From contig JAJTYI010000002.1 of assembly GCA_021463645.1 (NCBI GenBank), positions 12,080 through 76,079 of the forward strand: a stretch of DNA of 64,000 nucleotides. Reading direction: 5' to 3'. The notes beneath the pieces were generated by a model. The model made no database searches. It had not been told where the DNA came from and worked only from the letters and a program-made list of their open reading frames with translations. This DNA comes from a bacterium (GTDB lineage Bacteria > Patescibacteriota > Dojkabacteria > B142 > OLB20). Both the position numbers and the translations under genes were made by a program. This document shows, piece by piece, positions 18,185-61,150 of this stretch (position 1 is its first letter; each line of letters starts with the position of its first letter).

Positions 18185-18208
18185 TCCCTGCGAAAGCAGG
18201 GATTTTTT
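18185..18208 (+). terminator. Rho-independent terminator
   Basis: TCCCTGC-GAAA-GCAGGGA hairpin followed by TTTTTT. Confidence 0.7.
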
Positions 18209-20803: not shown

Positions 20804-21150
20804 CTTGACTTCTTAAATACCTTCATACGAAGGATTTTAATTAAAGTAAAGCCATCTAGAACGAATAGAGAGTAAAAAAGTAACCCGCAAATCAATTTGA
20901 AAACATCGATTTTACCATCGACCCAATAGCTTACAGGCCAACCTCGAAGAACTTCACCGTCTGAACCGTCCGTTTTGATTAAAAGACTTAAAGTTAAGAG
21001 AAGAATAGTCCCAACAATTATTCCGATAATATTCCTACGGGAATGTGCAAGTCGAACTTTAAACAAGAAATAAAGTATGGCATCAAAAAGTGCCATGAAA
21101 ATAATTGCTATCACTACGAGGGAGGAAACTAAAGTATCGAAAGGGTTCAT
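20800..21150 (-). CDS. Small membrane protein, unknown function
   Basis: 116 aa, 3-4 TM helices; 4-nt overlap with the CYTH gene. Confidence 0.45.
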   Translation of the reverse strand: MNPFDTLVSSLVVIAIIFMALFDAILYFLFKVRLAHSRRNIIGIIVGTILLLTLSLLIKTDGSDGEVLRGWPVSYWVDGKIDVFKLICGLLFYSLFVLDGFTLIKILRMKVFKKSR

Positions 21151-21239
21151 ATGTATTGTTAATATGGTTAATTATAGCGGAGGGAATAAATTAATTAAAT
21201 ACCATATTTCTGAGTTTCGTTGTTGTAAGAATTATGTTG

Positions 21240-21245
21240 TATAAT
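21240..21245 (+). promoter_or_regulatory. Candidate -10 box (TGTTGTATAATC context) for the tRNA-Gln locus
   Basis: TATAAT lies about 10 nt upstream of the tRNA-like 5' fragment. The same GTTGTATAATC string recurs at 61965-61976. Confidence 0.4.
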
Positions 21246-21255
21246 CTTAGCGTAT

Positions 21256-21368
21256 TCGGAGATCGTCTAATCTAATGAGGAGTTAGTGAGCTTGAGCGAA
21301 GCGAAAAGCGAACTTATCCGAATTAGCCCCGTAAGCTTACGCAGTTAGCTGTACGGGGTCTATTAGAC
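21256..21368 (+). other. Duplicate of the first 16 nt of tRNA-Gln fused to a Y-shaped structured insert
   Basis: TCGGAGATCGTCTAAT (21256-21271) is identical to tRNA positions 21417-21432. It is followed by nested stems GTCTAAT/ATTAGAC, CTAAT/ATTAG and CCCCGTA/TACGGGG. Confidence 0.5.
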
Positions 21369-21416
21369 AAGACAAGCAAATAAATAAGGCATAGTATTTA
21401 AACTGTAAAAAATTAA

Positions 21417-21487
21417 TCGGAGATCGTCTAATGGTAGGACAACAGTTTCTGAAGCTGTTTATCTAGGTTCGAGCCCTAGTCTCCGAA
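21417..21487 (+). tRNA. tRNA-Gln (anticodon CUG)
   Basis: Hand-folded cloverleaf: acceptor TCGGAGA/TCTCCGA, D arm GTCT..GGAC, anticodon arm ACAGT-TTCTGAA-GCTGT, T arm CTAGG-TTCGAGC-CCTAG. No encoded CCA. Confidence 0.9.
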
Positions 21488-21988
21488 TTTTGTTTTTTAA
21501 TTATTAAATACCTTAATTTCTACATTTTAATATTAGGTTCTCCCTTACAACTTATACGGAAACTCGTTAGTGAAAGGGATTAACCAGCAGTAATGTTCGA
21601 TAAATCTCACAAACTGCTGCTAAAGAGCCCCTGTCTGCCGACAGGCAGGCTAGTCTCCGAATTTTGTAAATTAAATATTAATTTAATTAGTTCATTTTAA
21701 TCCTAGGTTCTCCCTTACAACTTATACGGAAACTCGTTAGTGAAAGGGATTAACCAGCAGTATTGTTCGATAAATCTCACAAACTGCTGCTAAAGAGCCC
21801 CTGTCTGCCGACAGGCAGGCTAGTCTCCGAATTTCTTTAAGAACAGATAAATCTATAATTCAAAAGGTATTTCTTTGGTTCTCCCTCACTCTGGTAGAGG
21901 GAGGGACTAACCAGCAGTAATGTTCGGTCTTACCTCACAAACTGCTGCTAAAGAGCACCTGTCTGCCAACAGGCAGGCTAGTCTCTGA
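21488..21988 (+). repeat. Three tandem units (period about 170-173 bp), each ending in a T-loop-interrupted copy of the tRNA-Gln 3' end
   Basis: Units are 21534-21660, 21704-21830 (one mismatch to unit 1) and 21877-21988 (diverged). Each reads (CTA)GGTTC + hairpin-rich insert + CTAGTCTCCGAATTT. In unit 3 the first hairpin is replaced by a different perfectly paired stem. Confidence 0.85.
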
Positions 21989-22013
21989 ATTTAATTCTTA
22001 AAAATTGCCCCTA

Positions 22014-22373
22014 ATGATGAACACCAACAAAAACATTAACTCCATTGATGAATATATAGGTCAGTATGACATTGATATTCAAGAAAAATTAACCAAGATA
22101 AGAGACTTTCTAAGACCACTAATTCCAGATGTTGAAGAAGCAATGACATACGGTATACCAACGTTTAAATCTAAAGGAAAAAATATTTCCCATTTCGCTA
22201 ACTATGAATCCCATATTGGATTGTATCCCGGCTCTAGTGCAGTTGAAGAATTTAAGGATAAATTAAACGACTTTAAAATTTCAAAAGGAACAATTCAGAT
22301 AAAGCACGATCAAGACCTTCCATTCGAATTGATAAAACAAATGGTCAAATTTAATCTGGAGAATCTAGAGTAA
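22014..22373 (+). CDS. DUF1801 (YdhG-like) domain protein
   Basis: SIDEYI....IQEKLTKIRDFLRPLIPDVEEAMTYGIPTFK is the pattern of the YdhG/DUF1801 family. Start moved to ATG 22014. Confidence 0.6.
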   Translation: MMNTNKNINSIDEYIGQYDIDIQEKLTKIRDFLRPLIPDVEEAMTYGIPTFKSKGKNISHFANYESHIGLYPGSSAVEEFKDKLNDFKISKGTIQIKHDQDLPFELIKQMVKFNLENLE

Positions 22374-24014: not shown

Positions 24015-24473
24015 TTATTCCGTGTGAGATGAGTCTTTTAACAAAAAGATACAAATAAAGAAGAGACTAATTAAAGCATATATAATTGCCAAAACCCCGT
24101 AATTTATTGGAACCTCCAAAGTTATCAAAGCAACTACAACTATATTAAATACCATAACTACGAAACTATTAACTTTTAATTCAGAACCTCGTCCAGGAAT
24201 CAGGTTAGTCCCAATCAACATCGTAACTCCGAAGTTATAAATGTAATCGAAAGGGTGTAAGGGGAGCTTTATGCCGAGGAATGCAATTAATGCTACTATT
24301 ATAAGTATGAATGAATTACCTAATAATATACCAGTAATGACTAACAATATTTGTACCGGGTAACTAAACCTGATACCGTATTGCACGCTCTTCTTATCTG
24401 ATATTAATCTACATGCTATCCACTTCGAGAAAAATCGTTCTTTAATTTTTCCTAATAAGTCTTCCGTTTTCAT
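24015..24473 (-). CDS. Polytopic membrane protein, unknown function
   Basis: 152 aa, 4 predicted TM helices. Confidence 0.5.
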   Translation of the reverse strand: MKTEDLLGKIKERFFSKWIACRLISDKKSVQYGIRFSYPVQILLVITGILLGNSFILIIVALIAFLGIKLPLHPFDYIYNFGVTMLIGTNLIPGRGSELKVNSFVVMVFNIVVVALITLEVPINYGVLAIIYALISLFFICIFLLKDSSHTE

Positions 24474-24510
24474 TAGCTCGTATACTTGTGCTGAAGAAAT
24501 TGGTTTTGTT

Positions 24511-24568
24511 CGGCTAAGAGATGTGAGCCCTGATTTTCATCAGGATAAACTCCATCGAACCGCCTAAT
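24511..24568 (-). repeat. Distal degenerate T-arm-like fragment with hairpin
   Basis: The minus-sense sequence GGCGGTTCGATGGAG is followed by the hairpin CCTGAT-GAAA-ATCAGG. It shares GGTTCGATGGAG with the proximal element. Confidence 0.5.
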
Positions 24569-24584
24569 GAAATTGTATACAAAA

Positions 24585-24641
24585 AGCGGGCGATCCCTCC
24601 CTAAGAATTTGGGAGGGACAGGCTCCATCGAACCCGTATCC
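24585..24641 (-). repeat. T-loop-interrupted copy of the tRNA-Gly 3' end
   Basis: The minus-sense sequence starts GGATACGGGTTCGAT, identical to the tRNA. A roughly 33-nt insert with hairpin TCCCTCCC..GGGAGGGA follows. It ends TCGCCCGCTTTTTGTA, identical to the tRNA 3' end plus trailer. Confidence 0.8.
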
Positions 24642-24655
24642 ATTTATTTACAAAA

Positions 24656-24727
24656 AGCGGGCGACGGGAATCGAACCCGTATCCTTGGTTTGGAAAACCA
24701 ATATAATGACCGCTATACTACGCCCGC
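24656..24727 (-). tRNA. tRNA-Gly (anticodon UCC)
   Basis: Hand-folded cloverleaf: acceptor GCGGGCG/CGCCCGC, anticodon arm TTGGT-TTTCCAA-ACCAA, T arm CGGGT-TCGATTC-CCGTC. No encoded CCA. Confidence 0.9.
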
Positions 24728-24789
24728 TTTTTTTAAAGAACAGCCAATTATAACTAATTATCGTCAGATTATAAAGTGGGAGTTATTTA

Positions 24790-25251
24790 TTAATTCACAA
24801 TTCTGGTAGGTCCGACAGTGTCTGTTATTGCTTCTGTTGGAGTTGGAGTCTGAGTGGGTCTGGGTGTTGAAGTAGGTGGGACCTTAGTTGGAATAGAAGT
24901 TGGGACCGGTGTGATTGTGGGTGTATGCCTTTCGAAGTCATCGAGATACCCCTCAATTATCTGATCAAGATGAGATCTTTCGATAAGTCTATCTAATAAT
25001 GGAATATTTTCTGCTGATTGAACAAAATTCGAGAATCCAGTTAGAAACAATGCAAAGCCAATACTTGCTCCAATAGCAGTGAAAACACCATTTAATAATC
25101 CTCTTAAAATCACGTTTCGCTTACGATTTACATTCGTAAGTTTATTGAGATTTTTGTTTAATTCAATTATTTCGTATTTTAAGGTATTACCGTTTTGATA
25201 CACACCTTGTGTAGGAATCGGCTTTTTTGGTCCTGGAGCAGTATCTTGCAT
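24790..25251 (-). CDS. Membrane-anchored protein with Pro/Thr-rich C-terminus, unknown function
   Basis: One TM (VFTAIGASIGFALFLTGF) and the C-terminal tail TPVPTSIPTKVPPTSTPRPTQTPTPT. Confidence 0.5.
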   Translation of the reverse strand: MQDTAPGPKKPIPTQGVYQNGNTLKYEIIELNKNLNKLTNVNRKRNVILRGLLNGVFTAIGASIGFALFLTGFSNFVQSAENIPLLDRLIERSHLDQIIEGYLDDFERHTPTITPVPTSIPTKVPPTSTPRPTQTPTPTEAITDTVGPTRIVN

Positions 25252-33787: not shown

Positions 33788-33825
33788 ATTCGGAATTTAT
33801 AGTTTAGGATTCAGAAATATAAGTT

Positions 33826-33980
33826 GCGAGAGATTCCCGCTACCGAGGGAAAATGATTCATTTCCCTGACCTGATCCCGCCTTGGATACTTGGCAGGACG
33901 GATCTCTAGGTAGTGATTTCTCGAGTTATACAGTGCTGAAATCATCTGCGAGAGATCCCTTCTTTCGAAGGGAAATTAAA
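33826..33980. repeat. REP-like hairpin modules (GAGAGAT-CCC family)
   Basis: GCGAGAGATTCCC-GCTACCGA-GGGAAAATG, TTTCCCTGACCTGATC..GGATCTCTAG and GCGAGAGATCCCTT-CTTTCG-AAGGGAAATTAAA. Colinear with 43413-43516. Confidence 0.7.
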
Positions 33981-39424: not shown

Positions 39425-39540
39425 TGTCATTCCTGAGACAAACTGTCACTCCTGCGACTAATTGTCACTCCTGCGAAGGCAGGAGTCTATTCCAAGTCCT
39501 ACATTATAAAGGATAGATTCCTGCCTTCGCAGGAATGACA
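39425..39540. repeat. MITE/REP-like element with nested palindromes
   Basis: Three direct TGTCA[CT]TCCTG[AC]GA words are followed by TGTCACTCCTGCGAAGGCAGGA. About 34 nt later comes its inverted partner TCCTGCCTTCGCAGGAATGACA. Each arm is itself a CCTGC-GAA-GCAGG hairpin. Confidence 0.7.
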
Positions 39541-43304: not shown

Positions 43305-43360
43305 ATATAATAGAAAATGGGTGAAGTCAATAACCTTGAAGATTTGGAATATATTAACAT

Positions 43361-43520
43361 GAGATCCCCGCTGGAGTTTACACCAAACCTGATTTGGTGC
43401 GGGGATATCTATTAATTTCCCTGACTTGATCAGGGATCTCTAGACTGTGAATTACCTAAGAGATACCTTATATAGAAAAGTTTGAGAGAGATACCCTTTT
43501 CCGAGGGGAAATTAAAATCA
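43361..43520. repeat. REP-like hairpin modules (GAGAGAT-CCC family)
   Basis: Nested stems ATCCCCGC..GCGGGGAT around CACCAAA..TTTGGTG, then TTTCCCTGACTTGATCAGGGATCTCTAG, then GAGAGAGATACCCTT-TTCCGA-GGGGAAATTAAA. Colinear with 33858-33980. Confidence 0.7.
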
Positions 43521-46665: not shown

Positions 46666-48861
46666 TTATACTATCTTTATTACGTATAGACCAAATCTTG
46701 CTCTTGTCATAGCCTCGTAATTTATCATTTTATCGTCATCCGAGATATTCTTATTGTGTTGGATATAAATGACAATATCTGCTTCTAAACCTTTGTATGC
46801 ATGTACGGTAAAATGATCTATATTCTTAGAAATTTTTAATTGTTCAAGATTTAGTATATCTTTCTCGCTTAGAAACTTTTCAAATCTACGATCAGATAAA
46901 ATTACTGTAGATACATCTTCGGCTTGTTCAATGCCAACTTCTTTTATTAATTCTTGAATCTCTTTAACTACTAGGTTTTTGTTGTTTACATTCAATATGT
47001 CTGTAAAATTCGTGGTTAATATCTTTGAGTAGTCTATAATCCTCATTTCAGGGCAAATGTCTTCAATAAATTGATGTATTCCTAGACTATTTCTGTAATT
47101 ATTAAATAAAAAATAAATATCTAGCTCTTTCAATGTTCGATTCATATCTAAACCTTCACCCAGCCTTCTGTAGTATTCTTCAACAAAATCTCTTCCAAAA
47201 ATATTCTGAGTTTCATCAGCGGCCAAAAGTATGCTACCTTTATCTGTAAGAAATTTATCAAGAATTAATTCGATCCAATTGAATTCAAAGTCTTGTGCCT
47301 CGTCGATAATAATCAAATCATATGTCTTGGCAATTTCTTCTATCGACTCAAGATTTTTTAATTTAAAATCTTCTAGATTTACATTATCTGGGTTTAAACT
47401 CTTATCAAATTGGTGAACATTGAATATTTCAACATTATTAAAATCTCCAACCTGGTTGTGTATATCATCCGCAAGCTTAGAGTTAAAACACAAATATAAG
47501 ATGTTTTCAAAAGAGTCTACACAATTTTGAATGGTTCTAATACAATGATATGTTTTTCCCGTTCCAGGACCACCTATAACTAAAGTATTAAGTTTTATAT
47601 TAAAATAATCTTTCTCTAATTCTGAATTATTTTTTTTATATGTATCCTTTTTAAAACTTTTTATCAACTTATAGTCCTTGTATCCCTTTGTAATTCCTAC
47701 TAACTCTTCAAAAGATCTTTGTATCATGTTTTTATTTAAGTTACTACTACCTCTCTTATTAAATATTTCTTCAACCTTTATTTCTAAATTTTCCGAAGTT
47801 ATGATATTATCATGCATCGACACATCCCCTCTTAGTTCTTCTTTTCTAGGAATCAAAACTGCTGTCTCATATATTAAATTATTCTTAATAGACGGTATTC
47901 TATGCTCTAAAAAATCGATGAGTGCTCTTTTATTTCTTTCCATTTGTTCGAATAGTTTACTCATACTTTCACCACTTTTATATGTAAGACTTCCATCGGA
48001 ACCGATTGTTAACGAACTCTTCACTTCAATAACAATGAATCCTTTGTCTAAATCAAAAAGTATTAAATCTATCTCGCCTAAATAACATTTATTATTTAAT
48101 TTAAAATCGTATGTTTTTGAATAGATTAGTCTATATTTATTTGATTTATCTAACACTTTTTCCTTTAATAAATACAAAGCGTTTGCTTCAGCTCTCCTTC
48201 CTGCATCTTCTCGTGTTGAGTCCGTCGATACTATTAAATCAACTTTATGAGGTATCAAATATTTAGATTCGACTATTTTTCTTTTTACCTTTATTGCTTT
48301 GCTTTCGGCTATCTTCTTATTTTCGATGTGATAATTTTCTATGCCATCCAATTTAGGCTTGTAGTATTTATTGACGAACTCAGGATCTTCCATTTTTAAA
48401 TTTTTAAATTCTTTCTCCATATCTTCCTTCTTATGTTTTTTCACTTCCTGTTTACCTTCTCGGAGTGCACCTTTAAATAAGTTTTTTAAATTTTTTTCAT
48501 CAATATAAAACCCACTAGATTTACTCTTAAAGTATTCATCTAGTAACTTACCTATGGCATAAGTTAAAGAAAATACAGTAGGAATGGTAGTAACAGCACC
48601 AAAGTAAGGGATAAACTTATATAGACCGATGGCTAATTGTTGTGCAAAAACCCCTATACCAACTATCCCCATTAGCTCCTTAATTATTTCTATTAATTCT
48701 TGTTCAGATAAATTTATTCCATGTGACTTTGCAATCTCTCGACCCATGAGAGCCTGTATAGGAGTTAATATAAAAATATCCGCAAATGGTATGGGTTGGA
48801 TAGCTACAATTGCACAGATAGAACTATATTTGATGATTGTGGATTGAGTATGTTTGTACAA
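46666..48861 (-). CDS. DUF697-like hydrophobic N-domain + NERD nuclease-related domain + SF1 (UvrD/AAA_30-like) helicase
   Basis: N-terminus AIVAIQPIPFADIFILTPIQALMGREIA plus a hydrophobic stretch. NERD core GEIDLILFDLDKGFIVIEVKS. Walker A VIGGPGTGKT, Walker B LIIIDEAQD, and C-terminal VHAYKGLEADIVIY..MTRARFGLYVI. Confidence 0.75.
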   Translation of the reverse strand: MYKHTQSTIIKYSSICAIVAIQPIPFADIFILTPIQALMGREIAKSHGINLSEQELIEIIKELMGIVGIGVFAQQLAIGLYKFIPYFGAVTTIPTVFSLTYAIGKLLDEYFKSKSSGFYIDEKNLKNLFKGALREGKQEVKKHKKEDMEKEFKNLKMEDPEFVNKYYKPKLDGIENYHIENKKIAESKAIKVKRKIVESKYLIPHKVDLIVSTDSTREDAGRRAEANALYLLKEKVLDKSNKYRLIYSKTYDFKLNNKCYLGEIDLILFDLDKGFIVIEVKSSLTIGSDGSLTYKSGESMSKLFEQMERNKRALIDFLEHRIPSIKNNLIYETAVLIPRKEELRGDVSMHDNIITSENLEIKVEEIFNKRGSSNLNKNMIQRSFEELVGITKGYKDYKLIKSFKKDTYKKNNSELEKDYFNIKLNTLVIGGPGTGKTYHCIRTIQNCVDSFENILYLCFNSKLADDIHNQVGDFNNVEIFNVHQFDKSLNPDNVNLEDFKLKNLESIEEIAKTYDLIIIDEAQDFEFNWIELILDKFLTDKGSILLAADETQNIFGRDFVEEYYRRLGEGLDMNRTLKELDIYFLFNNYRNSLGIHQFIEDICPEMRIIDYSKILTTNFTDILNVNNKNLVVKEIQELIKEVGIEQAEDVSTVILSDRRFEKFLSEKDILNLEQLKISKNIDHFTVHAYKGLEADIVIYIQHNKNISDDDKMINYEAMTRARFGLYVIKIV

Positions 48862-48890
48862 GATTTAGATATTTAACGTGATTTATTATA

Positions 48891-49826
48891 TTAAAGATCT
48901 CTCGAATTTTCTTCATATTCTTTATCCAGTATAGATTTGCTCTTGACCTTTTCCTTGTTATCGAAAGTTCTCCCAAATGCATCATATTTAGTTTTTGTGT
49001 ACTTATGTATCTTTTCTTTGTTGAAACCTTTTTTATTAAAACCTTCTCTATCATATCCTTGAATGTTGTAACCCTCACGGTCATACTCAGATTGAGTATA
49101 CTTATTGATTCCTTTAATATTAAATTTTCTTTTATCGAATCCTTTTCTATCGTAACCTAGTTTATTGTAACCTTTACTGTCAAAACCCTGACTGTCGAAT
49201 CCATCTTTGTTAAAACCAAATACGTTGAAACCTTCTTTATCATATCCCTCGAAATCAAATCCAAATTCATCAAAATTATTTCCCGTAACAAAATGGTTAC
49301 TTTTTTTGTTAAAACCATCTTTATTAAAACCTTTATGGTCATAGCCATCCTTATCAAAACCTTCTCTGTTATAACCATTTTTATCATAACCTCTTATATT
49401 AAATCCTTTGATATCAAACCCTTTTAGATCATACTTTTGTCTTGTTTTATAATGTAACCCAAATTTATCAAATCCAGATATATTTAAACCATTAATGTCC
49501 CAGACTTCTCCTTTAACTATTTGATCGTAAAAATCTAATATTTTTATATGTTTAGGATATACTTTAGATAATCTAAGTAATTCCTTTTTACTTTCTTCCC
49601 AATTGCCTAATTTCGCCTCTATCAATGCTTTAGCTGTTTTAGAACTGACTAGAAATTTATTTACAAATATTGATTTGTCATTAACTAGTTCTAATTCCGC
49701 AATAATCTCATTAAAAGTTTTCAGAGCTTCTTGGAATTCATTAATCTTATATTGGTGGTAGGCAAGTTTATAGAGTTGAAGGATCAACTCTTCGTCTAAA
49801 TTCTTTTTTGATTCTTTTTTACTCAC
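48891..49826 (-). CDS. TPR-like N-domain followed by about two dozen 5-residue G[FY][DN]xx repeats
   Basis: KGFDIKGFNIRGYDKNGYNREGFDKDGYDHKGFNKDGFNKK, FGFDFEGYDKEGFNVFGFNKDGFDSQGFDSKGYNKLGYDRKGFDKR and EGYNIQGYDREGFNKKGFNKE. The corresponding 15-nt DNA periodicity is visible at 49000-49450. Confidence 0.7.
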   Translation of the reverse strand: MSKKESKKNLDEELILQLYKLAYHQYKINEFQEALKTFNEIIAELELVNDKSIFVNKFLVSSKTAKALIEAKLGNWEESKKELLRLSKVYPKHIKILDFYDQIVKGEVWDINGLNISGFDKFGLHYKTRQKYDLKGFDIKGFNIRGYDKNGYNREGFDKDGYDHKGFNKDGFNKKSNHFVTGNNFDEFGFDFEGYDKEGFNVFGFNKDGFDSQGFDSKGYNKLGYDRKGFDKRKFNIKGINKYTQSEYDREGYNIQGYDREGFNKKGFNKEKIHKYTKTKYDAFGRTFDNKEKVKSKSILDKEYEENSRDL

Positions 49827-49860
49827 GAGAGTTATAAGCTAACCCCTTTTTGAACAAATT

Positions 49861-52593
49861 TTAAATCTTCTTCCATTGTTTCTTAAAATGTTCGACCTTG
49901 ATATATTCATCTAGAACATGAGAGCAGGATTCCCAGTTAAGGGCTTGAACCATTTTTGGATTTTCGTATTTTGATTCAAACGGACTCCTTTCAGGAACTG
50001 CATCTATAATCTTTTTTGCCTTCTCAATGTTATTTTGTGCAATTTCCACCCATACATCTTCAAGGACATCAGGTAATTGACCAAATATGCTTGTTATTGA
50101 TTTTAATCGTTCGGAAAGTATTGAGTGCACACGATCTTCTATTGAGTCTTTGTACCTCATATTATAAATCCATACTTCATCAAAACGTTGGCCAATCCTT
50201 TGGATTCTTCCTTTTCTTTGCTCAAGTCTTGTAGGATTCCACGGCAAGTCAATGTTAATTAATGCTCCAAGCGTTTGTAGGTTTAGTCCCTCACTAGCTG
50301 CATCTGTCCCAAATAGAATTTTTATTTCACCAGTCTTGACCATTTTTTTTAATTCATCCTTTGGACGCTTAACAAATTGTCCATCGATGAACATCCCGGA
50401 TTTATCTCCACCGGCATACAGGCCTATCTTCATGTCGGGGAAAATATTTTGCTTCACAAGTTTTTCGGCAAACCAGTATGCTGTATCAAAATACTGTGAG
50501 AATATTATGCAGCCTCGTTTTGCCCATTCGCTATCTTTAAGTAATTCTACTAATAAATTGAATTTTGGATCTTCATCGATTCGTTCTCGAATAATTGTGA
50601 TAAATTCCTGAAGTGCATTATATGCACTTTTATCAAGTTCAACTGCATCTTGGGGAATTAGTTCATCCTCATATAAATCGTCCTCTTTAGTAAAATCGTT
50701 CACTTTTTCTTCAATAGGCAAATCCGCCCCTTTATGCCCTTTCAATAGTTTCTCTGCAGTTACACTTCCGGCGAACATTGAACTACCAACTCTTTTTAGT
50801 AATAAGGAAGTAATAAATTTGCTATTTCGTTTTGATTTTGCTAGTTCTTGAGAAAATTCTTCTGCTTTTACATAGGCATCCTGTAAATAGGTAGGAAGGA
50901 CTATAGCCTCCGAATCTTTATCCCCAAAAAGCTGGACTTTAATTGGTGCCAAATAAGGTTCGTTTGTTGCAGGATTAATTGTCGTTTCAAGATATTTTCT
51001 TGTTCTCCGAACTATCTTACGAATAAACGGATTATGTTCATCAATGTATTTATCGCTTATTCTTTCAACAATGTTTTTTTGCAAAGGTTCCAACTCATTA
51101 AATGATTTATTCAGAATATGTTCTGAATCTGAAAGCTCAGCTGAGTCTCTTAAAATTCCAATGTTTTGAGGGTCCTCAAAACTATCTGGTAGGGGATTTC
51201 GCATCCAATCAAAAATCTCTTCAACACGATTCAGTTTTAATTCACCTGATAATAATTTCAAAGCCAAGGCTGGATTAGTTTGCCAATGACTGGCATATGA
51301 ACCTAAAATTTTTTCATCTCCCTGACTTAAGATGTTTAATAAGTCCCAAGCTTCAATAGGGTATAGCTGGATAGGAGTAGCTGTACCCATCAAAATATGT
51401 TCAGTTTTTCTGGCAATTTTAAGCAAGTAATTGTAAAGATTATTTGGTAGTGGTTTTTCGTACTCTTTATCCTTTCCTAGATTCTTTCTGCGGGCACGGT
51501 GGCATTCATCTACAATAATAGTATTATATTCAAGATCTAATAAAAGTTTAGAAGCGTCAGTATTTGCTGTAATAATTCCTTGGGAAATAATTCCAATTTT
51601 TCTTGGACATCTTTTTATATCAAGGGTGCTTTTTCCACCAAAAATGTTTTCTGATTCATCAACCCAACATTTACCGTCCCAAACAGCGGAAGGCAATCCC
51701 ATTAATGTATTTAATTCATCTTGCCATTGCCAGCAAAGAGTTTTTGGACAAATTATAAGCACTGGTTTTTCGCTGTGAAGGGATAATACTTGAGCTGATA
51801 AACCAAGCTGGATTGTCTTACCAAGGCCAACCATATCGGCTAATACATATCGGGCTTTAGAACCTGCTAACTGCGTTCGATAAACTAGATCAATAAAATA
51901 CTTTTGATGCTCCCAAAGCCCCAATTGTTGTCTGTAAACAGGTGATTCGACAACTGTTTCCTCCGGTCTAGAAATCCTTTCTATTTGATAAATGATTTTT
52001 CTTTCTGAAATCCTACGAATATCTTCAACTACGAAATCGATAATATTTCTAGCATTTTCGTTATTCCATAAAGCATCAAATTCATTTTGCACCCAGGAAA
52101 CAGCATCGTATGAATCATCTTCCCAAACTAATTCGTAATTTCTTTCCCAACCAGATTGACTCTCATTCATACTCCCCAAAAAAGAGGTTTGTTTCCCGTC
52201 GGGATAAGTAATAACTCCTGCTTTTCCGTGGACAAAACCAAAAACATCATCAGGCAGAACTTTGATCTCCAGTTTTCCCGATCTAATAAGTGCATAAAGC
52301 TTTTCTAATCTGTCCGGGAATTGAATATCCTGTTTCTCAGGTTGGCTTTCACACCAATCTTTTCGGAGTGCGGCTTCAAATGCTTTGATATTTCTAACAT
52401 CATCAATCTGCAAATGTGCATTACAAATTATTCTGATCTTTCCAGTTACCGAGTCTAATGCCTCTCCAGAGATATCAAAAAGCGAAGTGGAGAAATAACC
52501 GGCGATCCTATCGTAACTTTGTGCTCCAGAAAGTTTGGCACTTAGAAGCGAAGTATTTAATTTTTCTCTTCTTGAAGAAAATCTGTTTATCAT
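49861..52593 (-). CDS. PLD-family (HKD) nuclease domain fused to an SNF2-family helicase
   Basis: FVHGKAGVI....FLGSMNES (HxK..GSxN), LADMVGLGKT (motif I), IIVDECHRARR (DExH), GTATPIQ and EQRKGRIQRIGQ (motif VI). Confidence 0.85.
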   Translation of the reverse strand: MINRFSSRREKLNTSLLSAKLSGAQSYDRIAGYFSTSLFDISGEALDSVTGKIRIICNAHLQIDDVRNIKAFEAALRKDWCESQPEKQDIQFPDRLEKLYALIRSGKLEIKVLPDDVFGFVHGKAGVITYPDGKQTSFLGSMNESQSGWERNYELVWEDDSYDAVSWVQNEFDALWNNENARNIIDFVVEDIRRISERKIIYQIERISRPEETVVESPVYRQQLGLWEHQKYFIDLVYRTQLAGSKARYVLADMVGLGKTIQLGLSAQVLSLHSEKPVLIICPKTLCWQWQDELNTLMGLPSAVWDGKCWVDESENIFGGKSTLDIKRCPRKIGIISQGIITANTDASKLLLDLEYNTIIVDECHRARRKNLGKDKEYEKPLPNNLYNYLLKIARKTEHILMGTATPIQLYPIEAWDLLNILSQGDEKILGSYASHWQTNPALALKLLSGELKLNRVEEIFDWMRNPLPDSFEDPQNIGILRDSAELSDSEHILNKSFNELEPLQKNIVERISDKYIDEHNPFIRKIVRRTRKYLETTINPATNEPYLAPIKVQLFGDKDSEAIVLPTYLQDAYVKAEEFSQELAKSKRNSKFITSLLLKRVGSSMFAGSVTAEKLLKGHKGADLPIEEKVNDFTKEDDLYEDELIPQDAVELDKSAYNALQEFITIIRERIDEDPKFNLLVELLKDSEWAKRGCIIFSQYFDTAYWFAEKLVKQNIFPDMKIGLYAGGDKSGMFIDGQFVKRPKDELKKMVKTGEIKILFGTDAASEGLNLQTLGALINIDLPWNPTRLEQRKGRIQRIGQRFDEVWIYNMRYKDSIEDRVHSILSERLKSITSIFGQLPDVLEDVWVEIAQNNIEKAKKIIDAVPERSPFESKYENPKMVQALNWESCSHVLDEYIKVEHFKKQWKKI

Positions 52594-52595
52594 GA

Positions 52596-55496
52596 TTATA
52601 TTCCGTCATTCTCAACTAGACTTTGAATGTACTGTGCGTATCTGGCTGATTCTTGCCAATGCTCTGCACCTGTAATATTCTCAAGTGTGTTAATTAGTTT
52701 TAATATCTCAATTATTTTATTTCTACTATTCCAGTAATCAGGAACTTCGTTTCTTAACCAATTTTTCCCACTAACAGCATCTTCGTCTTTCACTGCTAAA
52801 TATATTGCCATTAGTATTTGTCGGACTAAACTTTTTGAAAAACTTTCGGCATTATTTAGTAATTTATTTGAAAATTCAATTGGAGTTTTTAACCTGGCAT
52901 TATTTGCCTTAGTAGAAGCAAGTAAGAGGGTATAGTCAGATACCCCTAGTCCTCTTGCTAATTCCTGATATGCAGATAAAGCAAACGCGCCAGATTTTTC
53001 AAATTCTAAACCTTTAATATAATACTTTTCTTCTTTGCTTAAATCTTTCCAGACATTTTTTGAGATACCCTTAGGGATAAGGTAATCATATGCAACTTTA
53101 ATTGCTGACTCGATAATAAGTTGAATAGGGCTTTTAGCATTCTTATCACGCTTACGTGAAATTTCATATTCAACATCAATATCTCCAATTTTCTTATATT
53201 TAGTGAGCACTTTAAGGGAAGCTGCATAAGCGGCTAATAAATAATCATTATCTGTAAAGTCGGGTTCATCCTGATCATCTAAAGCATGCATAGAATCAAT
53301 TTGAGCTTTAACCTCATCTTTTATTTCCGGATAGATGTCATCGAGCCAACCATTCAGATTGGAATTGTTTTTTCTTAAAACTAATAACACTGTGCCTTTA
53401 ACGTAGTTTCCGGACTTCAAGCCACCTGACTCTGTTTCTGTAGCGATATTCCAAGCAGCAGTAACCTGTAAACCAGCCGACCAAAGAATTAATGATAATT
53501 CTGCCCAGACTGCAGGGTCTTGATGTGTGAACATAACTATCTGCATACCATCATCAGGCATATGGTTGGTTAGATTGCGATAGACATCAATCATAGCTTT
53601 CGTGAAGTTTTCGTCGTTACCTTTTACAGCATCTTTTCTTTTACTTTCGGTATACCATTCTGGGAAAGCCTTTTTAATTAATGTCTTGTTCCAGGCTAAA
53701 AAGAATTCAGAAAGTTCATGATAATTTACAGCGTCTGCGTACGGTGGGTCAGTAATCCATAAGTTGGAATTATAATTGATTACTCTTGCGTCACATGTAT
53801 TTACTTTCCCTTCCAATGCTTCTTTAGTATTTGAGAAATTTAAGAACCAAGCCGAGTCAAGATTGGACGTGGCTTTGCAGCCATATACGTAAAGTGTGTT
53901 TAAAGCTTGGTTAGAAAATGTATTTTGCGTATGCTCTTGGTTTGCACCATTATTCCATATACACAAACGGCTATTCCAATCCGCTATTTTATTTATTCCT
54001 AAAATCCCTGTTACAAATTCCTTTTTGTTACTAGCTAGAGTTTGAATAGTTTCACTTATTATTCCTAGCAATAGTAACTGTCTTGGATTAAATAATTGAT
54101 GCCAGTATTGCCAACCCCTTTCTCTAATTGGTTGATCTGTATTATATCCTGACTCAATCCTATCAGATGGTATATAACCTTTATCTTGCCACTCACTAAA
54201 CTTATCTGCCAATAATTGATATACTTTTTGCTCACGCTTTAAATCTTCATCTGTAGGGGTTACATAATGCCTGATACCCTTTATCTTGTTATTTTCAAAA
54301 ATTGTTTCTTCGTATCTTATGCAATAAAGTCTTTCTTGGAAAATATCCGTTTCCCGAGGTGTAAACTCATTTTTCCCCCACATTCTTAAACCAAATTTTG
54401 TATTTCCGTTTTCATCTTTTTTGTCTTTTCTAATACTTGTTATTGGGGTTACAACTTTGCAATGTGAGCATTTTAATGAACTATCTTCAATTGTTCTATA
54501 CTTATCTGCATCTTTTAATTCTTGATTAGACACATCAGACTTTATTTCAATATCAAAAGATTTCTTTGTAGGATTTTCTTTTAGAATTGCGATTGTTTTG
54601 CTCCTTTTCCCAATTATCATTGAGGGGAAAAGTGGTATTAACCAATCGCAGGCAGGACATTTTATAAAATGTCCATAAATATAGGCTTTTGATCTCCATC
54701 CATTCTCATTCGTCTCGATCCCCCATTCCAATATTTGTTTATCAATAGCGTCATATACTTTCTTTTGAAAATTCTTTAGCTTTTTAATTTCCTCATCACT
54801 TGCCCCGTTGATATTGACAGCTGCCCACGTTAACAATGTTGCGATTGGGTTAAGGTCAGATGCATAGGCGTTTAAACCTAATCTTGCCGCCTCAAAAGGG
54901 ATGCTACCACCACCTGCAAAACAATCACCTAATGTTGTAATTTCTCCAAAGCGTTTAATGCTTAGTTGCTGAAATATTTCTTGAATATTAGTAGCTTCAA
55001 TACCCAGTTGGGAATTAATCTCTTCAATTGATTTATTTTTGATTTCAGTTATTTCTTCAGGCCTTACACAGTAAGTAATTTTTTTATCGTAGCTAAGTCT
55101 TGAGAATACAAGTTTCTGGACTTCATTTTTCTCTTTGTTTGAAATATCTGATTTCCACTTGATTTTGGTGTCCTGAGATACAAAATAATAGGCTCGTTCT
55201 TTATCTGTCAGATTGTCGTATAAATCTGAAATTGAAATACTCGCCTTTTTCCTTTCCCATAAACCTTCGTCATCCATTGTTAGAATTTTAAGGAAAATTT
55301 CTCGGTCTTTTTGAGGATTATTTGTTGCAGGTAGAAGCAATCCAAGAATTGCCGCCCTTACTAGAATAAGAGGTTTGCGCCCCCACCATTTACCAAGTCC
55401 AGTCAGTGTCTGCCCAGCTCCAGCCTTCCTCTCCTTATAACTTTCTTTTGAAATTTTTGAGACAGGGAACTGTACCTCAATAAATGATTTTTCCAT
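52596..55496 (-). CDS. DUF1156-type Zn-ribbon DNA methyltransferase (DPPY, N6-adenine/N4-cytosine class)
   Basis: N-terminal FPVSKISKES..GLGKWWGRKPLILVRAAILG. SAM motif DCFAGGGSIPFEAARLGLNAYASDLNPIA. Cys pairs CPACDW..CSHCKV. Catalytic ITDPPYADAVNY. Confidence 0.85.
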   Translation of the reverse strand: MEKSFIEVQFPVSKISKESYKERKAGAGQTLTGLGKWWGRKPLILVRAAILGLLLPATNNPQKDREIFLKILTMDDEGLWERKKASISISDLYDNLTDKERAYYFVSQDTKIKWKSDISNKEKNEVQKLVFSRLSYDKKITYCVRPEEITEIKNKSIEEINSQLGIEATNIQEIFQQLSIKRFGEITTLGDCFAGGGSIPFEAARLGLNAYASDLNPIATLLTWAAVNINGASDEEIKKLKNFQKKVYDAIDKQILEWGIETNENGWRSKAYIYGHFIKCPACDWLIPLFPSMIIGKRSKTIAILKENPTKKSFDIEIKSDVSNQELKDADKYRTIEDSSLKCSHCKVVTPITSIRKDKKDENGNTKFGLRMWGKNEFTPRETDIFQERLYCIRYEETIFENNKIKGIRHYVTPTDEDLKREQKVYQLLADKFSEWQDKGYIPSDRIESGYNTDQPIRERGWQYWHQLFNPRQLLLLGIISETIQTLASNKKEFVTGILGINKIADWNSRLCIWNNGANQEHTQNTFSNQALNTLYVYGCKATSNLDSAWFLNFSNTKEALEGKVNTCDARVINYNSNLWITDPPYADAVNYHELSEFFLAWNKTLIKKAFPEWYTESKRKDAVKGNDENFTKAMIDVYRNLTNHMPDDGMQIVMFTHQDPAVWAELSLILWSAGLQVTAAWNIATETESGGLKSGNYVKGTVLLVLRKNNSNLNGWLDDIYPEIKDEVKAQIDSMHALDDQDEPDFTDNDYLLAAYAASLKVLTKYKKIGDIDVEYEISRKRDKNAKSPIQLIIESAIKVAYDYLIPKGISKNVWKDLSKEEKYYIKGLEFEKSGAFALSAYQELARGLGVSDYTLLLASTKANNARLKTPIEFSNKLLNNAESFSKSLVRQILMAIYLAVKDEDAVSGKNWLRNEVPDYWNSRNKIIEILKLINTLENITGAEHWQESARYAQYIQSLVENDGI

Positions 55497-55498
55497 AT

Positions 55499-56074
55499 TT
55501 AAATATCTTCGTCATTCATATTAAAAAAAAGTGATTCACGCTTTTTGTCATCCAGCACGGGGTTTTCAGTAAGGGCATACCTGATTGCTTTTCTCCAGCC
55601 AAAGTTATCATCAACATTACCGCTAGTAGCGTTGGTCATTGTATAAAGCCACCATCGTTCTTCTGGTCTTAATCCTAACCAATTTTTTAATGCACTATCA
55701 ATGTTAGTGGGATCGCAATCTGCTATTACCCAAGCAATCAGAACTAGTTCTTTACCAAGTAACCTATGAACTGGTGTCTTGCCCATTACCCAAGTTCCTT
55801 TCTTGTACTTTTTTGCTTTTAATCTAGGATTGAATTCCCGGGCAATAGTAAATTTAATTTTTTCCCATTTTGAAACAGATAAGAGCACTTTAATTTTGTC
55901 ATGACGATAATCAATCACTTGTTCTCCTTCCAACCACTTTGCTCTTTCAAATATTCTTACTTCTTTGTCTTTATTTCGAGGTATCTCCACTAGAAAATGA
56001 AGTTGAGATTCTTCTGGTACAAATCCAAAACCTATTGATGTTAGTTTTTTATTTTTATTTTTGTTCAATATCAT
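55499..56074 (-). CDS. Small conserved partner protein (DUF3780-like by size and position)
   Basis: About 190 aa. It overlaps the stop of the upstream ATPase gene and ends 2 nt before the methyltransferase ATG. The domain assignment rests on synteny only. Confidence 0.45.
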   Translation of the reverse strand: MILNKNKNKKLTSIGFGFVPEESQLHFLVEIPRNKDKEVRIFERAKWLEGEQVIDYRHDKIKVLLSVSKWEKIKFTIAREFNPRLKAKKYKKGTWVMGKTPVHRLLGKELVLIAWVIADCDPTNIDSALKNWLGLRPEERWWLYTMTNATSGNVDDNFGWRKAIRYALTENPVLDDKKRESLFFNMNDEDI

Positions 56075-59000
56075 TTCGATCAACTTTGCTCAATGAAATA
56101 TTTTGCGCAGATAAGAACCTTTTAAAAGTTATACCATCTTCAAATGAAATTTTTCTTAATTCTAATGAGATTTCAATTTGGTCATTCTCATCTGCTACGT
56201 TACTTCTTATTTGTGACAAGATTTCTTTAAGCTTTTCCATATTTAAAGACATAGTCTCGGAAAAAGACAAACTAATCCAGTTAATTTTTCCGTTTATATT
56301 AAAGTTAATAGCATATGGCGTAACTTGTGCGTTTGACCTTTGTAATTCTTCTATCATACTATAGGTTTGGTTATTGTCTGATGTTGGTAGTTTTTGTTTA
56401 TAAACAACCGGTTTATGGTCGTCAATAACAAGTGGACCAGTTGTTTGAGGAACAGATATCTCCTCAATGTCACTTTGATCACCATCGATTATTGCAACTA
56501 CCCTTATATATTTTGTGCCATCTGGAATCTGAAATGGAGTATCATAAATCCCACCATTATCTCGGGGATCGCTACTGTCGGTAGTATATTTGATTTGTGC
56601 TCCACAATTCACCTGCAACTCAAGTGCCTGTCCGTCATGACCTTCAATAAATTTATAGGTTATTTTAAGAGGTGCTTTGAATAATTTAACTTCCCCGGTT
56701 TCGTGTTCACCCTTAGAATCTACACAAAGAAAGTAATTTTTATAATCTGTTATTGATAAGAAATCAGGATTTTCTACAAGTTTGGAACTTTGTGTAACAT
56801 TTTCATTTGAATCTAGATAGATTTTATCTCCATATTTTGCGATGACCTTGATAGCAGTCGCCTTAGTATCCTTGTCATAGTCTTTAACTTTGATATCAAT
56901 CCCAGTTGATTCCTTTGGGAAAGGTCCTTTTGAGATATATCCTCCATTATCTCTCCAATGACCTTCTTGTAATGCACTTATTTTCAAATCATCAAGCGCT
57001 CTAGGATGATGCCATGTCCAACGACAATTGCGTGCGGCCCTGTCTTTTAAATCTTCCCAACGTACTTCTGTTTCTGTTTCTCCAAATAACTTTTCTTCCA
57101 CCATTTTTCTGAAATTAGGATTGTTGATTTCGTTTGTAAATTTTCTTTCTTCTATCAGTAAGTTACAAATTTGCTCTTCAGGGTTAAAATCATTTCCTGA
57201 AAATTGGAATTTAATCTCTGCTTCTGCGAGGAAATCGCCACTCTCTTGATTTCGAGGAAAATATATTTTTATAAAAGTCTCTCTTATCGCAGAATTAATA
57301 CTTAGACGAATTTTATCTTGTTTATCAATTGCTTTTTTATACTGTGGATCTGATTCTAAAACGCGGTCAGATAGCATTTGTTCAATAATTGACTTTATAC
57401 CTTTGTACTCTTTAAAAACTTTAGTTAAGTTTTCCCATGTTTGCCTTTCACCGGATAGAAACAAGAATCTGTTTTTGAATGGATGATCGTTCCAATACTC
57501 CATAAGTTCTACCGCTAAACCTGTTTGAATGGTACTAGGTTCTGTTACTAACAAAGTAACATCTTTGGAATTGATTTCTATTTCATCAACTGCGGGGAAA
57601 ACAACAACTTTATGATACACATCTTTCTTTATAGGTTTAAGTTCTTCGTTTAAGTAAGCACGAATCTCTTTTTTTGCACTTTCATCATCAAAACTATCTA
57701 CTAATTCTTTAAGTCTTGCAATAAGGTTTTGCTGGTTTTGGAAGAAAAATTTTCCATCTTTGTCTCTTGCTAAATACCATGCGCCTTGGTCTAAGTGGTC
57801 AATAGCCGTTTTAAGATCAGTCACTTTTGTTTCTGGAGTGACTACATAATCGATAATCTCATTTAGGTGCAGTCCTTTAATACCTCCTGCAGTATTTGAA
57901 AGTGAAGATATTAAAATTAGTTTGGCAACACTACTAACATCGCTAGTTTTTAGATTATCATCAGCAATTTCAGCAATTGAATCACCTTGGTCAGCTATAT
58001 CATGTTTTATAGCACTGACCAAGGTGTCATTCAGCTGTTCGATTGTAGTTCTAATCTTTGGATTGGAGAGGTTTATATTTTGAGGTGCAATTAATTCACC
58101 TTCAAAACTTGAATTGTATAGATCTTGCAACATCATTCTGACTAAGCGAATGACTCCCCTTGTCTGTTGAAAACCTTCGTTCTCTTTAAATCTATGATAT
58201 AGGTTTATAAAAGATGGATGGAATGGATAGGTTTTAATAATTTGAGTATAAATGGTAGTAGGATCAGTGGAGGTTAAACCGTTTTGCTTAGCTTCTTTTA
58301 ATACATCCTGATATTGTCTCGCGACTTTTTCTACTATATCCTTACTTGGTAATTTTTCAAATAGTTTAGTTTTCAAGATTTCTTCTAGGTCTCCGTCTGC
58401 TTTTACAGGGGTAAGATTTAATGAAACCCGATTCAATTCACCTCTGAGATTCTTTAATACTTCTTGAATAAGTTGACTACCTTCAGAGTAGCTACCAGCC
58501 AAGTCTGCAATGACTACCATCACATTAGATAATTCTTTCTGTTTGACAACATTAAATAGATTTGCCAATGCAATCCCCGTAACATTACTTAAGTCTGAGT
58601 TCCCAACACTAACAGCTTTAGCACTTACCAAGTAAGGTGGGAGCTCATCTATCAAAATTAATGTCGGAGCTCCTTTGAGCATTGTTTTCCAGGCTTCATC
58701 CCCTGGAGCTTTATATTGAGGGTTAAAATATTCTTTAAATTGTTCTTCTTTACCCAATTGTTTGGCCAGTTCTCCCCATAAGCCAAGAGGAGAATCGGTT
58801 TGTCTTCCTGAAAAACCAATTACCCTTACTTCACCTTGGAAACAATCTTTACCTAAAAATCTTTCTCTGAATTCTGGATGTTTTGCCAACAATCCTAAAG
58901 TAATCATACTGTGCGTTTTACCACCACCCATGTTTTGAGTTAATTTAACTATCCCTTTATCTTCTTTCCCCTCGAATCTTCCAAATGCCGTCTTTAATAG

Positions 59001-59150
59001 GATATTTATACCGTCTGTAAAATAACTCTCCGCAAAGAATCTCTCTGGCTCAATTTCGTTCTTTAATAGATTTAGGATTTCTAAAACATCGTCCTGGAGA
59101 TTATCATTTAATGCTGACTCTCTCACCTTACAATTTTCTATTAACTTCAT
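56055..59150 (-). CDS. DUF499-type P-loop ATPase (BrxC/PglY-like)
   Basis: ..ESYFTDGINILLKTAFGRFEGK..VKLTQNMGGGKTHSM (Walker A) and PTLILIDELPPY (Walker B); over 1000 aa. Confidence 0.85.
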   Translation of the reverse strand: MKLIENCKVRESALNDNLQDDVLEILNLLKNEIEPERFFAESYFTDGINILLKTAFGRFEGKEDKGIVKLTQNMGGGKTHSMITLGLLAKHPEFRERFLGKDCFQGEVRVIGFSGRQTDSPLGLWGELAKQLGKEEQFKEYFNPQYKAPGDEAWKTMLKGAPTLILIDELPPYLVSAKAVSVGNSDLSNVTGIALANLFNVVKQKELSNVMVVIADLAGSYSEGSQLIQEVLKNLRGELNRVSLNLTPVKADGDLEEILKTKLFEKLPSKDIVEKVARQYQDVLKEAKQNGLTSTDPTTIYTQIIKTYPFHPSFINLYHRFKENEGFQQTRGVIRLVRMMLQDLYNSSFEGELIAPQNINLSNPKIRTTIEQLNDTLVSAIKHDIADQGDSIAEIADDNLKTSDVSSVAKLILISSLSNTAGGIKGLHLNEIIDYVVTPETKVTDLKTAIDHLDQGAWYLARDKDGKFFFQNQQNLIARLKELVDSFDDESAKKEIRAYLNEELKPIKKDVYHKVVVFPAVDEIEINSKDVTLLVTEPSTIQTGLAVELMEYWNDHPFKNRFLFLSGERQTWENLTKVFKEYKGIKSIIEQMLSDRVLESDPQYKKAIDKQDKIRLSINSAIRETFIKIYFPRNQESGDFLAEAEIKFQFSGNDFNPEEQICNLLIEERKFTNEINNPNFRKMVEEKLFGETETEVRWEDLKDRAARNCRWTWHHPRALDDLKISALQEGHWRDNGGYISKGPFPKESTGIDIKVKDYDKDTKATAIKVIAKYGDKIYLDSNENVTQSSKLVENPDFLSITDYKNYFLCVDSKGEHETGEVKLFKAPLKITYKFIEGHDGQALELQVNCGAQIKYTTDSSDPRDNGGIYDTPFQIPDGTKYIRVVAIIDGDQSDIEEISVPQTTGPLVIDDHKPVVYKQKLPTSDNNQTYSMIEELQRSNAQVTPYAINFNINGKINWISLSFSETMSLNMEKLKEILSQIRSNVADENDQIEISLELRKISFEDGITFKRFLSAQNISLSKVDRNDIEQK

Positions 59151-59240
59151 AGTTATTAGTAATTAATTATTATTTTAGTTTCCCAATAAGATTATATATC
59201 AAATTGGATGTATTATATTACATGATGAAATGAATCTACT

Positions 59241-60968: not shown

Positions 60969-61040
60969 GATAAATATTTATTAAGTATATTTAATTATGT
61001 TAGAGTATATACTAAACTTTGAATTAACCCCAACAAGCTT

Positions 61041-61150
61041 CCTTCCCAAATATAATTTCCAATCCCAAAATTCCTAAATCTATAAATTTTCCCTCCTCAT
61101 TTCTTAATTCCTCAATCCCTAAATCTCTAAATTCCTCAATTCCTTCACCT
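61041..61150 (-). repeat. Purine-rich post-stop motif, double copy E (overlaps the last codons of the Cas4-like gene)
   Basis: The sense strand reads GGAATTGAGGAATTTAGAGATTTAGGGATTGAGGAATTAAGAAATGAGGAGGGAAAATTTATAGATTTAGGAATTTTGGGATTGGAAATT. Confidence 0.6.

Follow-up and report, generated by a model that had tools for sequence, protein, structure and literature searches.

The window, a 64,000-nt stretch of genome from a member of the Dojkabacteria (contig JAJTYI010000002.1), contains an intact tRNA-Gln(CUG) gene that is followed by three tandem, non-coding units whose ends repeat the 3' end of the gene. The tRNA was called at 21417-21487 on the forward strand by both ARAGORN, as tRNA-Gln(CTG), and Rfam (RF00005, 61.6 bits), and CCA is not encoded. 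Tandem Repeats Finder (TRF) detected a period of 170 bp 3' of the tRNA, and a direct-repeat search together with a MAFFT alignment resolved three units, in agreement with an original prediction, made from the letters of the DNA, of three units about 170 bp apart. The limits given there (21534-21660, 21704-21830 and 21877-21988) are redrawn here to run from GGTTC to the discriminator, which places unit 1 at 21536-21661, unit 2 at 21706-21831 and unit 3, the most distal, at 21877-21989, all on the forward strand. Each of three conserved 19-23-mers that were tested occurs exactly three times in the 64 kb, with an expectation of 0. At its gathering threshold, Rfam finds only two tRNAs in the whole window and nothing more in the unit region at E ≤ 10, and no transfer-messenger RNA (tmRNA) was called in the window by ARAGORN or Rfam. 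The original remark that the fold is not recognisable as a known RNA family thus agrees with Rfam.

Unit 1 opens with a core at 21536-21624, composed of GGTTC, hairpin 1, TTAACC, hairpin 2 and TAAA, and closes with a tail at 21625-21661, composed of GAGCC, a 20-nt hairpin 3 at 21630-21649 and CTAGTCTCCGAA. It scores 91.3 bits with R1, a covariance model (CM) built from the core. Unit 2 (87.7 bits) differs from it in the MAFFT alignment by a single base, an A versus a T in the loop of hairpin 2, and unit 3 (82 bits) has a shorter hairpin 1 of different sequence that is still paired (CTCCCTC/GAGGGAG), both as first described. The tail of unit 3 is mutated: a C>A change gives GAGCAC, and a C>T change in the acceptor copy has TCTCTGA replacing TCTCCGA. 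All three units end in CTAGTCTC[C/T]GAA, corresponding to the 3' end of tRNA-Gln, and their folds beat those of shuffled sequence (z = -3.3 to -4.4). Each unit consists of a constant core of ~85 nt (GGTTC and two hairpins) and a copy of the local tRNA from T-loop nt 57 to the discriminator. The anatomy given in the original prediction, in which the 3' portion of a tRNA is interrupted within its T-loop and T-stem, is correct.

Two further kinds of tRNA-derived sequence, beyond those of the original prediction, occur in the window. A 5' piece at 21256-21374 (forward strand), found as a direct repeat, contains a copy of tRNA-Gln nt 1-16 (TCGGAGATCGTCTAAT), a structured insert of ~100 nt at the place of the D-loop, and then ATTAGACAAGAC; its fold has z = -2.9. 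The only other tRNA of the window, an intact tRNA-Gly(UCC) called at 24655-24728 on the reverse strand by ARAGORN and Rfam, is followed downstream on the same strand by two fragments, partial 3' copies that each contain an inserted hairpin. Fragment G1 (24585-24640) is composed of GATACGGGTTCGAT (tRNA nt ~44-58), GGAGCCTGT, the hairpin CCCTCCC/GGGAGGG, and TCGCCCGC with trailer. The decayed fragment G2 (24519-24564) reads GGCGGTTCGATGGAG, followed by the hairpin CCTGAT/ATCAGG and CTCAC..., and stems from the other of two tRNA-Gly alleles described below.

A constant core joined to local tRNA sequence

Syntenic loci, labelled L below, were collected from contigs of Dojkabacteria, a lineage of the Candidate Phyla Radiation (CPR), via homologues of the flanking DUF1801 and CYTH proteins, and this comparison sample comprises about a dozen loci from one clade. 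By the origin of its DUF1801 homologues, the window itself also falls into Candidatus Dojkabacteria. A GTDB scan with CACAAACTGCTGNTAAAGAGC returned one Dojkabacteria genome with two loci, along with two chance matches from elsewhere; a metagenome scan with a general pattern returned 69 matches, five of them real and the rest, including 23S rRNA, due to chance. Across the Dojkabacteria contigs, the same core is found behind Gln-CUG, Gln-UUG, Arg-GCG and Asn-GUU tRNAs and in a Gly fragment. The tail matches the local tRNA across acceptor variants (TCTCCGA, TCTGGCA, TCCCCGA, GGTGCA for Arg and CGCGGAG for Asn) as well as across T-loop variants (GAGCCC, GAATCC and GAGTCC). With TGCCAGA/TCTGGCA as the tRNA acceptor, L004 and L022 carry fragments that terminate in ...CTAGTCTGGCAA, and in L018 the T-loop reads GAATCC in tRNA and unit alike. 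The tRNA-Gln(UUG) locus, the second locus of the genome from the GTDB scan, has one unit, which ends in CTAGTCCACGAA. Two units from the metagenome scan have tails identical to their tRNAs, namely GAATCCTGCTTGGTGCAATT behind tRNA-Arg(GCG) and a tail behind tRNA-Asn(GUU) that extends over 12 nt of trailer.

In contrast to the tail, the leading GGTTC does not track the local tRNA, because it is constant behind Arg and Asn tRNAs that have other T-stems. With a local tail and a constant head, the unit is therefore a ~85-nt core joined at T-loop 56/57 to local tRNA sequence. The original claim that the unit copies its tRNA consequently holds from T-loop nt 57 onward and fails for the leading GGTTC. 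The 20-nt third hairpin, situated in the T-stem 3' strand, is present in the window lineage only, and distal tails carry 1-3 mismatches to the tRNA. A retrocopy of mature tRNA was considered and rejected because the tails lack CCA and the Asn tail includes trailer. A group I intron in a tRNA (10.1101/2025.07.03.662931) was likewise set aside as irrelevant, since it concerns the anticodon loop and an intron of another size.

Searched over 232 kb at E ≤ 1, R1 yields 27 matches, all at these tRNA loci and downstream of the tRNA wherever the contig includes it. It found no core elsewhere in the window, nor at a single one of the numerous non-tRNA GGTTC sites within the 232 kb. A GGTTCTCCCTTA string at 39344 was rejected as a unit: the CM does not match it, and it may be located where an open reading frame (ORF) ends. 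The copies are directional: among 26 tRNAs, the last 12 nt are copied downstream only and the first 12 nt upstream only, with 0 in the reverse controls. Homologous 5' pieces in L004, L014, L021 and L037 start with the 5' end of their own tRNA, and the piece in L004 resumes after its insert with TGGTAGGACA, which corresponds to tRNA nt 17-26.

Close relatives differ in their number of units, with 0 in some and at least 3 in others. The window has one 5' piece and three 3' units beside tRNA-Gln(CUG), L007 has one 5' piece and at least three units with an assembly gap in the array, and L004 has one 5' piece and two units. Only 3' units are present in L022 (two), L011 (one) and L018-L020 (one), only a 5' piece in L014 and, in decayed form, in L021, and neither in L024-L026. 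The flank that follows the tRNA in the unit-less L014 is orthologous to the flank beyond the last unit of L037, and the window and L007/L084 differ by shuffled spacer types, a sign of recombination within arrays. Because 5' pieces are found without 3' units and the reverse, a split tRNA or two-piece tmRNA-like heterodimer of the two is excluded; an anticodon arm is also absent.

We note that runs of N lie inside the tRNA-Gln array in two GenBank scaffolds of metagenome-assembled genomes (MAGs; L001 2753-2852 and L007 4973-5071). The repeat breaks short-read assemblies, and copy numbers taken from MAGs are therefore unreliable. The tRNA module itself is positionally unstable, because it is missing from the locus in one relative (L015 and L016, 3233-3654; CYTH 78% identical) and its orientation with respect to its neighbours flips among other lineages. 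In one lineage, an 82-amino-acid (aa) GIY-YIG ORF lies between tRNA-Gly and tRNA-Gln (L018 2463-2711, L019 2460-2708).

Integrative elements characteristically leave a tRNA 3' end directly repeated beyond the gene, and the units could be remnants of attachment (att) sites: integrase-bearing elements would repeatedly have entered the T-loop region and displaced the old 3' end, with their bodies later deleted. Crossover within a T-loop is known, e.g., for the attP core of Ms6, which recombines with tRNA-Ala T-loops (PMC1762012), and genomic islands that integrate at the single-copy ssrA gene are described for Dehalococcoides (PMC3146451). The array resembles such repeats in its partial tRNA 3' copies downstream of an intact gene, its breakpoint in the T-loop region, its tandem arrangement and the distal position of the oldest copy; in the window, the most distal copy is the most diverged. 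A 231-aa ORF without Pfam match lies on the reverse strand of L004 (3188-3883), flanked by the Gln 5' piece and by the gene for DUF1801, and L022, otherwise near-identical to L004, lacks both this ORF and the 5' piece; the ORF could be the cargo of an insertion.

We nevertheless consider an att-site origin improbable. No recombinase or integrase was found among the 38 window ORFs scanned with Pfam, which sustains the earlier remark that no integrase is nearby, and the precomputed Pfam gene tables of related loci contain neither a recombinase nor cargo. The period is merely 100-170 bp. A T-loop crossover should leave the T-arm of attR intact, with a contiguous block of identity over the crossover core, whereas the T-arm copy of the units is interrupted by ~85 nt at 56/57. 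The occurrence of one core family behind five tRNAs would call for five elements, each with the correct acceptor strand, and the mirror-image 5' copies set the family further apart from att repeats. Four scans of viral contigs, three for the 3' unit (type A, type B and a general pattern) and one for the 5' piece, produced chance matches alone, located within coding DNA or a cluster of phage tRNAs. In none of the related tRNA loci that were collected do the repeats enclose an intact element, as they would at ordinary att sites.

The tRNA-Gly fragments capture the core in both its present and absent states. G1 has orthologues at the same position in L011 and L004, and the hairpin in L011 differs from that in the window. 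G2 reads GGCGGTTC directly followed by GATGGAG... in the window and L004, while L011 has the ~85-nt core exactly at this junction, positioned precisely at GGTTC^GA and without target duplication. The window G2 is the empty site for the core seen in L011. The original prediction had offered two options, namely tRNA-linked small RNAs released by processing, or scars of a T-loop-targeting element. With the core located at 56/57, present in L011, absent from the window and L004, and a copy number of 0 to at least 3, the second of these is the better supported.

The same fragments record tRNA alleles. The functional tRNA-Gly is of type 1 in the window (GCGGGCG/CGCCCGC, T-stem ACGGG) and of type 2 in L004 (GCGGGTG/CACCCGC, T-stem GGCGG), and yet G1 is of type 1 and G2 of type 2 in both; L004 additionally has 5' pieces of both tRNA-Gly types. 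These are two tandem 67-nt pieces upstream of tRNA-Gly (L004 5022-5170, reverse complement), each composed of leader, tRNA nt 1-13 and the hairpin TCCTCC-TTCGCAAAAGCTAC-GGAGGA, with the outer piece derived from the other allele. Homologues of this hairpin form hairpin 1 in some Gln and Asn units; it resembles, e.g., hairpin 1 of L004B. Because distal copies carry mismatches and the Gly fragments retain the other tRNA allele, the tails are not tuned tRNA mimics.

The seamless GGTTC^GA polymorphism also brings to mind mobile palindromic elements. The core might be a non-autonomous, IS200/IS605-like (PATE-type) element, possibly also a guide-RNA scaffold, that inserts seamlessly 3' of GGTTC with a hairpin near each end and uses the tRNA-derived tail as a guide in the manner of a TnpB omega RNA. 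Like PATE and MITE elements, it occupies a fixed motif without target duplication and has hairpins close to both core ends, and its folding shows no strand bias (see below), as DNA hairpins predict. A TnpB omega RNA consists of a scaffold and a flank-derived 3' guide, and a core followed by a 17-29-nt tail identical to the neighbouring gene resembles this geometry. As in REP/BIME, PATE (IS200/IS605) and Rickettsia palindromic elements, the sequences are short and non-coding, retain their hairpins and reuse hairpin modules in different contexts. In contrast to these elements, the units are confined to duplicated tRNA ends, without terminal inverted repeats and without dispersed copies: no core sits at any non-tRNA GGTTC site in the 232 kb. 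No cognate TnpA, TnpB or RAYT was found among the scanned window ORFs or in any related-locus gene table. Moreover, a guide that matches an intact resident tRNA gene would self-target, and the left flank of the core is spacer and not tRNA body, so that a pre-existing tRNA fragment would still be needed. We regard this origin as very improbable.

Hairpin pairing, strand symmetry and transcription

Analysis with RNAalifold and pair counting reveals that hairpins 1 and 2 keep their pairing while 9 of 15 pairs change on both sides. Their covariation score was reached by 0 of 500 shuffles and was much lower in slid controls. In most single-sequence minimum free energy (MFE) folds, the two T-loop halves form a closing helix, GGUUCU/AGAGCC, and thereby a three-way junction. 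These features would suit selected functional RNAs, either small RNAs or elements for the processing or stability of the pre-tRNA, that are co-transcribed with the tRNA and present a T-arm-like three-way junction, with a tRNA-like 3' end for processing or protein binding. The retention of the family behind several tRNAs and across diverged lineages, and the lack of a predicted terminator between tRNA and units, also favor such a role, for which the rtT RNA of tyrT, with the role in processing that a preprint assigns to it, offers a precedent (10.1101/2024.07.17.603846).

However, the pairing lacks the asymmetry that strand-specific RNA selection would leave. The summed MFE is -336 kcal/mol for the plus strand versus -364 kcal/mol for the minus strand, which folds at least as well, and G-U pairs number 20 on either strand. 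At orthologous positions whole hairpins are replaced (e.g., in G1 of the window versus L011), in place of compensatory point changes. Because the strands fold equally well, G-U pairs are equal in number and hairpins are swapped wholesale, the pairing is real but is no proof of selection at the RNA level. DNA hairpins or palindrome-generating mechanisms would account for it equally well. Consequently, the original reading of the hairpin differences as a mark of RNA selection is not supported, and strand-specific RNA selection was rejected. The variable copy number between close relatives, some of which have no unit, and the decay of the tails also speak against a functional RNA. So does the absence of an acceptor 5' partner in cis, with 5' pieces and 3' units independent of one another. 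A selected functional RNA is thus unlikely, in our estimation, although the analogy with rtT RNA leaves some probability to a processed small RNA.

In the window, L014 and L004, a hexamer of the form TATAAT or TATACT precedes the 5' piece and not the tRNA. The window has TATAAT at 21240-21245 on the forward strand; identified by eye ~10 nt before the 5' piece, it could serve the entire array as a -10 element. The assignment is tentative because a consensus promoter scan called no full sigma-70 site on the forward strand. An intrinsic terminator scan returned 0 sites in 21100-22100, with none between tRNA-Gln and the units, and 0 in 24400-24850. Since the hexamers precede the 5' piece and no terminator is predicted, the array plausibly forms a single transcription unit, in which the 5' piece would serve as leader and the units as trailer. 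A terminator role of the units themselves was rejected, since in none of them does a T-run come immediately after a hairpin, a form that genuine-looking terminators at other window positions do have, e.g., at 18185-18208.

Other structured or repeated sequences of the window lie outside this array. A common intergenic motif, GAGATCCC...hairpin...GGGATCTCTAG, accompanied by TCCC..GGGA hairpins, occurs at 33825-33975 and 43360-43445 and may represent another small repeat family. Overlapping hairpins in the intergenic region 39430-39540 (ACTCCTG..CAGGAGT twice, and TTCCTGC-CTTC-GCAGGAA) have no match to Rfam or the unit model. A likely defence island at 46666-61859 on the reverse strand encodes a NERD/UvrD-like helicase, DUF3780, GmrSD and a PD-(D/E)XK nuclease, together with three ORFs of 900-1030 aa that lie outside the Pfam-scanned set.

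Relation to RtT repeats and proposed origin

The closest architectural parallel is found in Escherichia coli, where the annotation of NC_000913.3 gives the order tyrT, RtT, tyrV, RtT, RtT, RtT. To our knowledge, these repeats have been a curiosity without parallel ever since the late 1970s. RF00391 gives four matches in E. coli (133-137 bits) with a period of 178 bp. In NC_000913.3 1286709-1287500, each RtT is composed of AAGGTTCGA (the start of the T-stem/T-loop), a structured insert of ~70 nt and AATCCTTCCCCCACCACCA; the latter, at the end of 4/4 units, represents the 3'-terminal 19 nt of tRNA-Tyr, beginning in the T-loop. The E. coli RtT unit is thus a T-arm of tRNA-Tyr that is divided within the T-loop, with the acceptor 3' strand after it. 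According to a preprint, the gene rttR codes for rtT RNA, which takes part in tyrT transcript processing and possibly also in the stringent response, by an unknown mode of action (10.1101/2024.07.17.603846).

Both families therefore consist of tandem non-coding units directly 3' of a tRNA (period 178 bp for RtT versus 158-174 bp for the window family), end their units with the tRNA's own 3'-terminal segment, split the T-arm copy within the T-loop by a structured insert, and have a poorly understood function. They share no sequence or CM similarity, in that RF00391 has no match in 21100-22100 at E ≤ 10, nor in the whole window at the gathering score. The split point is at 56/57 in the window family versus ~58/59 in RtT. 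The core of the window family follows at least four tRNA species, and 5' pieces with D-loop inserts exist as well; it has no encoded CCA, no tpr-like ORF, and a CPR host. Our literature search on tRNA-flanking repeats in CPR bacteria and on palindromic insertions in T- or D-loops found no description of such units. We class the Dojkabacteria units as a new, RtT-like and tRNA-linked repeat family that is probably co-transcribed with the tRNA.

With a probability that we put slightly above one half (roughly 0.55), the units are a lineage-specific, non-coding, tRNA-linked repeat family of Candidatus Dojkabacteria with RtT architecture, generated by recombination, with little or no sequence-specific function, and are not evolved tRNA mimics. 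In favor of this origin, filled and empty sites coexist among relatives, distal tails have decayed, the Gly fragments retain a second tRNA allele, hairpin modules are exchanged and spacer types are shuffled. Composition, distribution, polymorphism, tail decay and hairpin retention are direct observations; how insertion and duplication proceed, through which enzyme, whether the array is transcribed and what it does belong to the inferred part of this reading. As proposed, each unit would be a duplicated tRNA 3' segment, from the T-loop to the discriminator and sometimes with a few trailer bases, that carries the ~85-nt two-hairpin module exactly at T-loop 56/57 and, in the window lineage, an extra 20-nt hairpin in the T-stem 3' strand. 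Mirror-image 5' pieces hold tRNA nt 1-13/16 and hairpin modules in the D-loop. The intact tRNA would survive because the segment from the loop to the gene end is duplicated. Gene conversion or unequal recombination among these duplicated tRNA ends would then expand, contract and homogenise the arrays. If the tRNA promoter also drives the array, as leader and trailer, cleavage at the tRNA-like 3' ends might yield RNAs of ~130-170 nt, cf. the preprint on the tyrT operon and rtT RNA (10.1101/2024.07.17.603846).

Several points weigh against this origin by recombination. Neither an enzyme nor a donor copy was found, and the mechanism for duplicating the tRNA segment is hypothetical. Behind four different tRNAs, and across lineages whose neighbouring CYTH and DUF1801 proteins are only 62-82% identical, the core is retained with both its helices. 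Such persistence outlasts what is expected of neutral debris in a streamlined genome and may reflect selection. Tails behind Arg and Asn match their tRNAs with 100% identity, which fits either a recent origin or constraint. Transcription and processing are suggested by analogy with tyrT, and a T-run directly after the tRNA (21488-21500) could stop transcription before the units. The comparison, furthermore, covers about a dozen loci from a single clade.

The presence of the same architecture in a CPR bacterium and in E. coli suggests that tRNA genes are subject to a recurrent process and not to a one-off accident. As a speculative extension, which we hold with little confidence, RtT-like repeats would form a general, hitherto unrecognised class, ranging from Enterobacteria to CPR, that arises by a mechanism targeting the loop DNA of tRNA genes (T-loop 56-59, D-loop 13-17), with seamless hairpin insertion and duplication of the gene end. 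It might be driven by an enzyme of the IS200/IS605 type or by an RNA-guided enzyme with the tail as guide. The Dojkabacteria arrays extend the RtT architecture, in that several tRNAs are served and mirror-image 5' pieces are present. They break MAG assemblies and carry a risk of confusion with novel RNAs, att sites or pseudo-tRNAs. Since the family offers natural presence and absence states together with fossil tRNA alleles, it makes the origin of such repeats testable.

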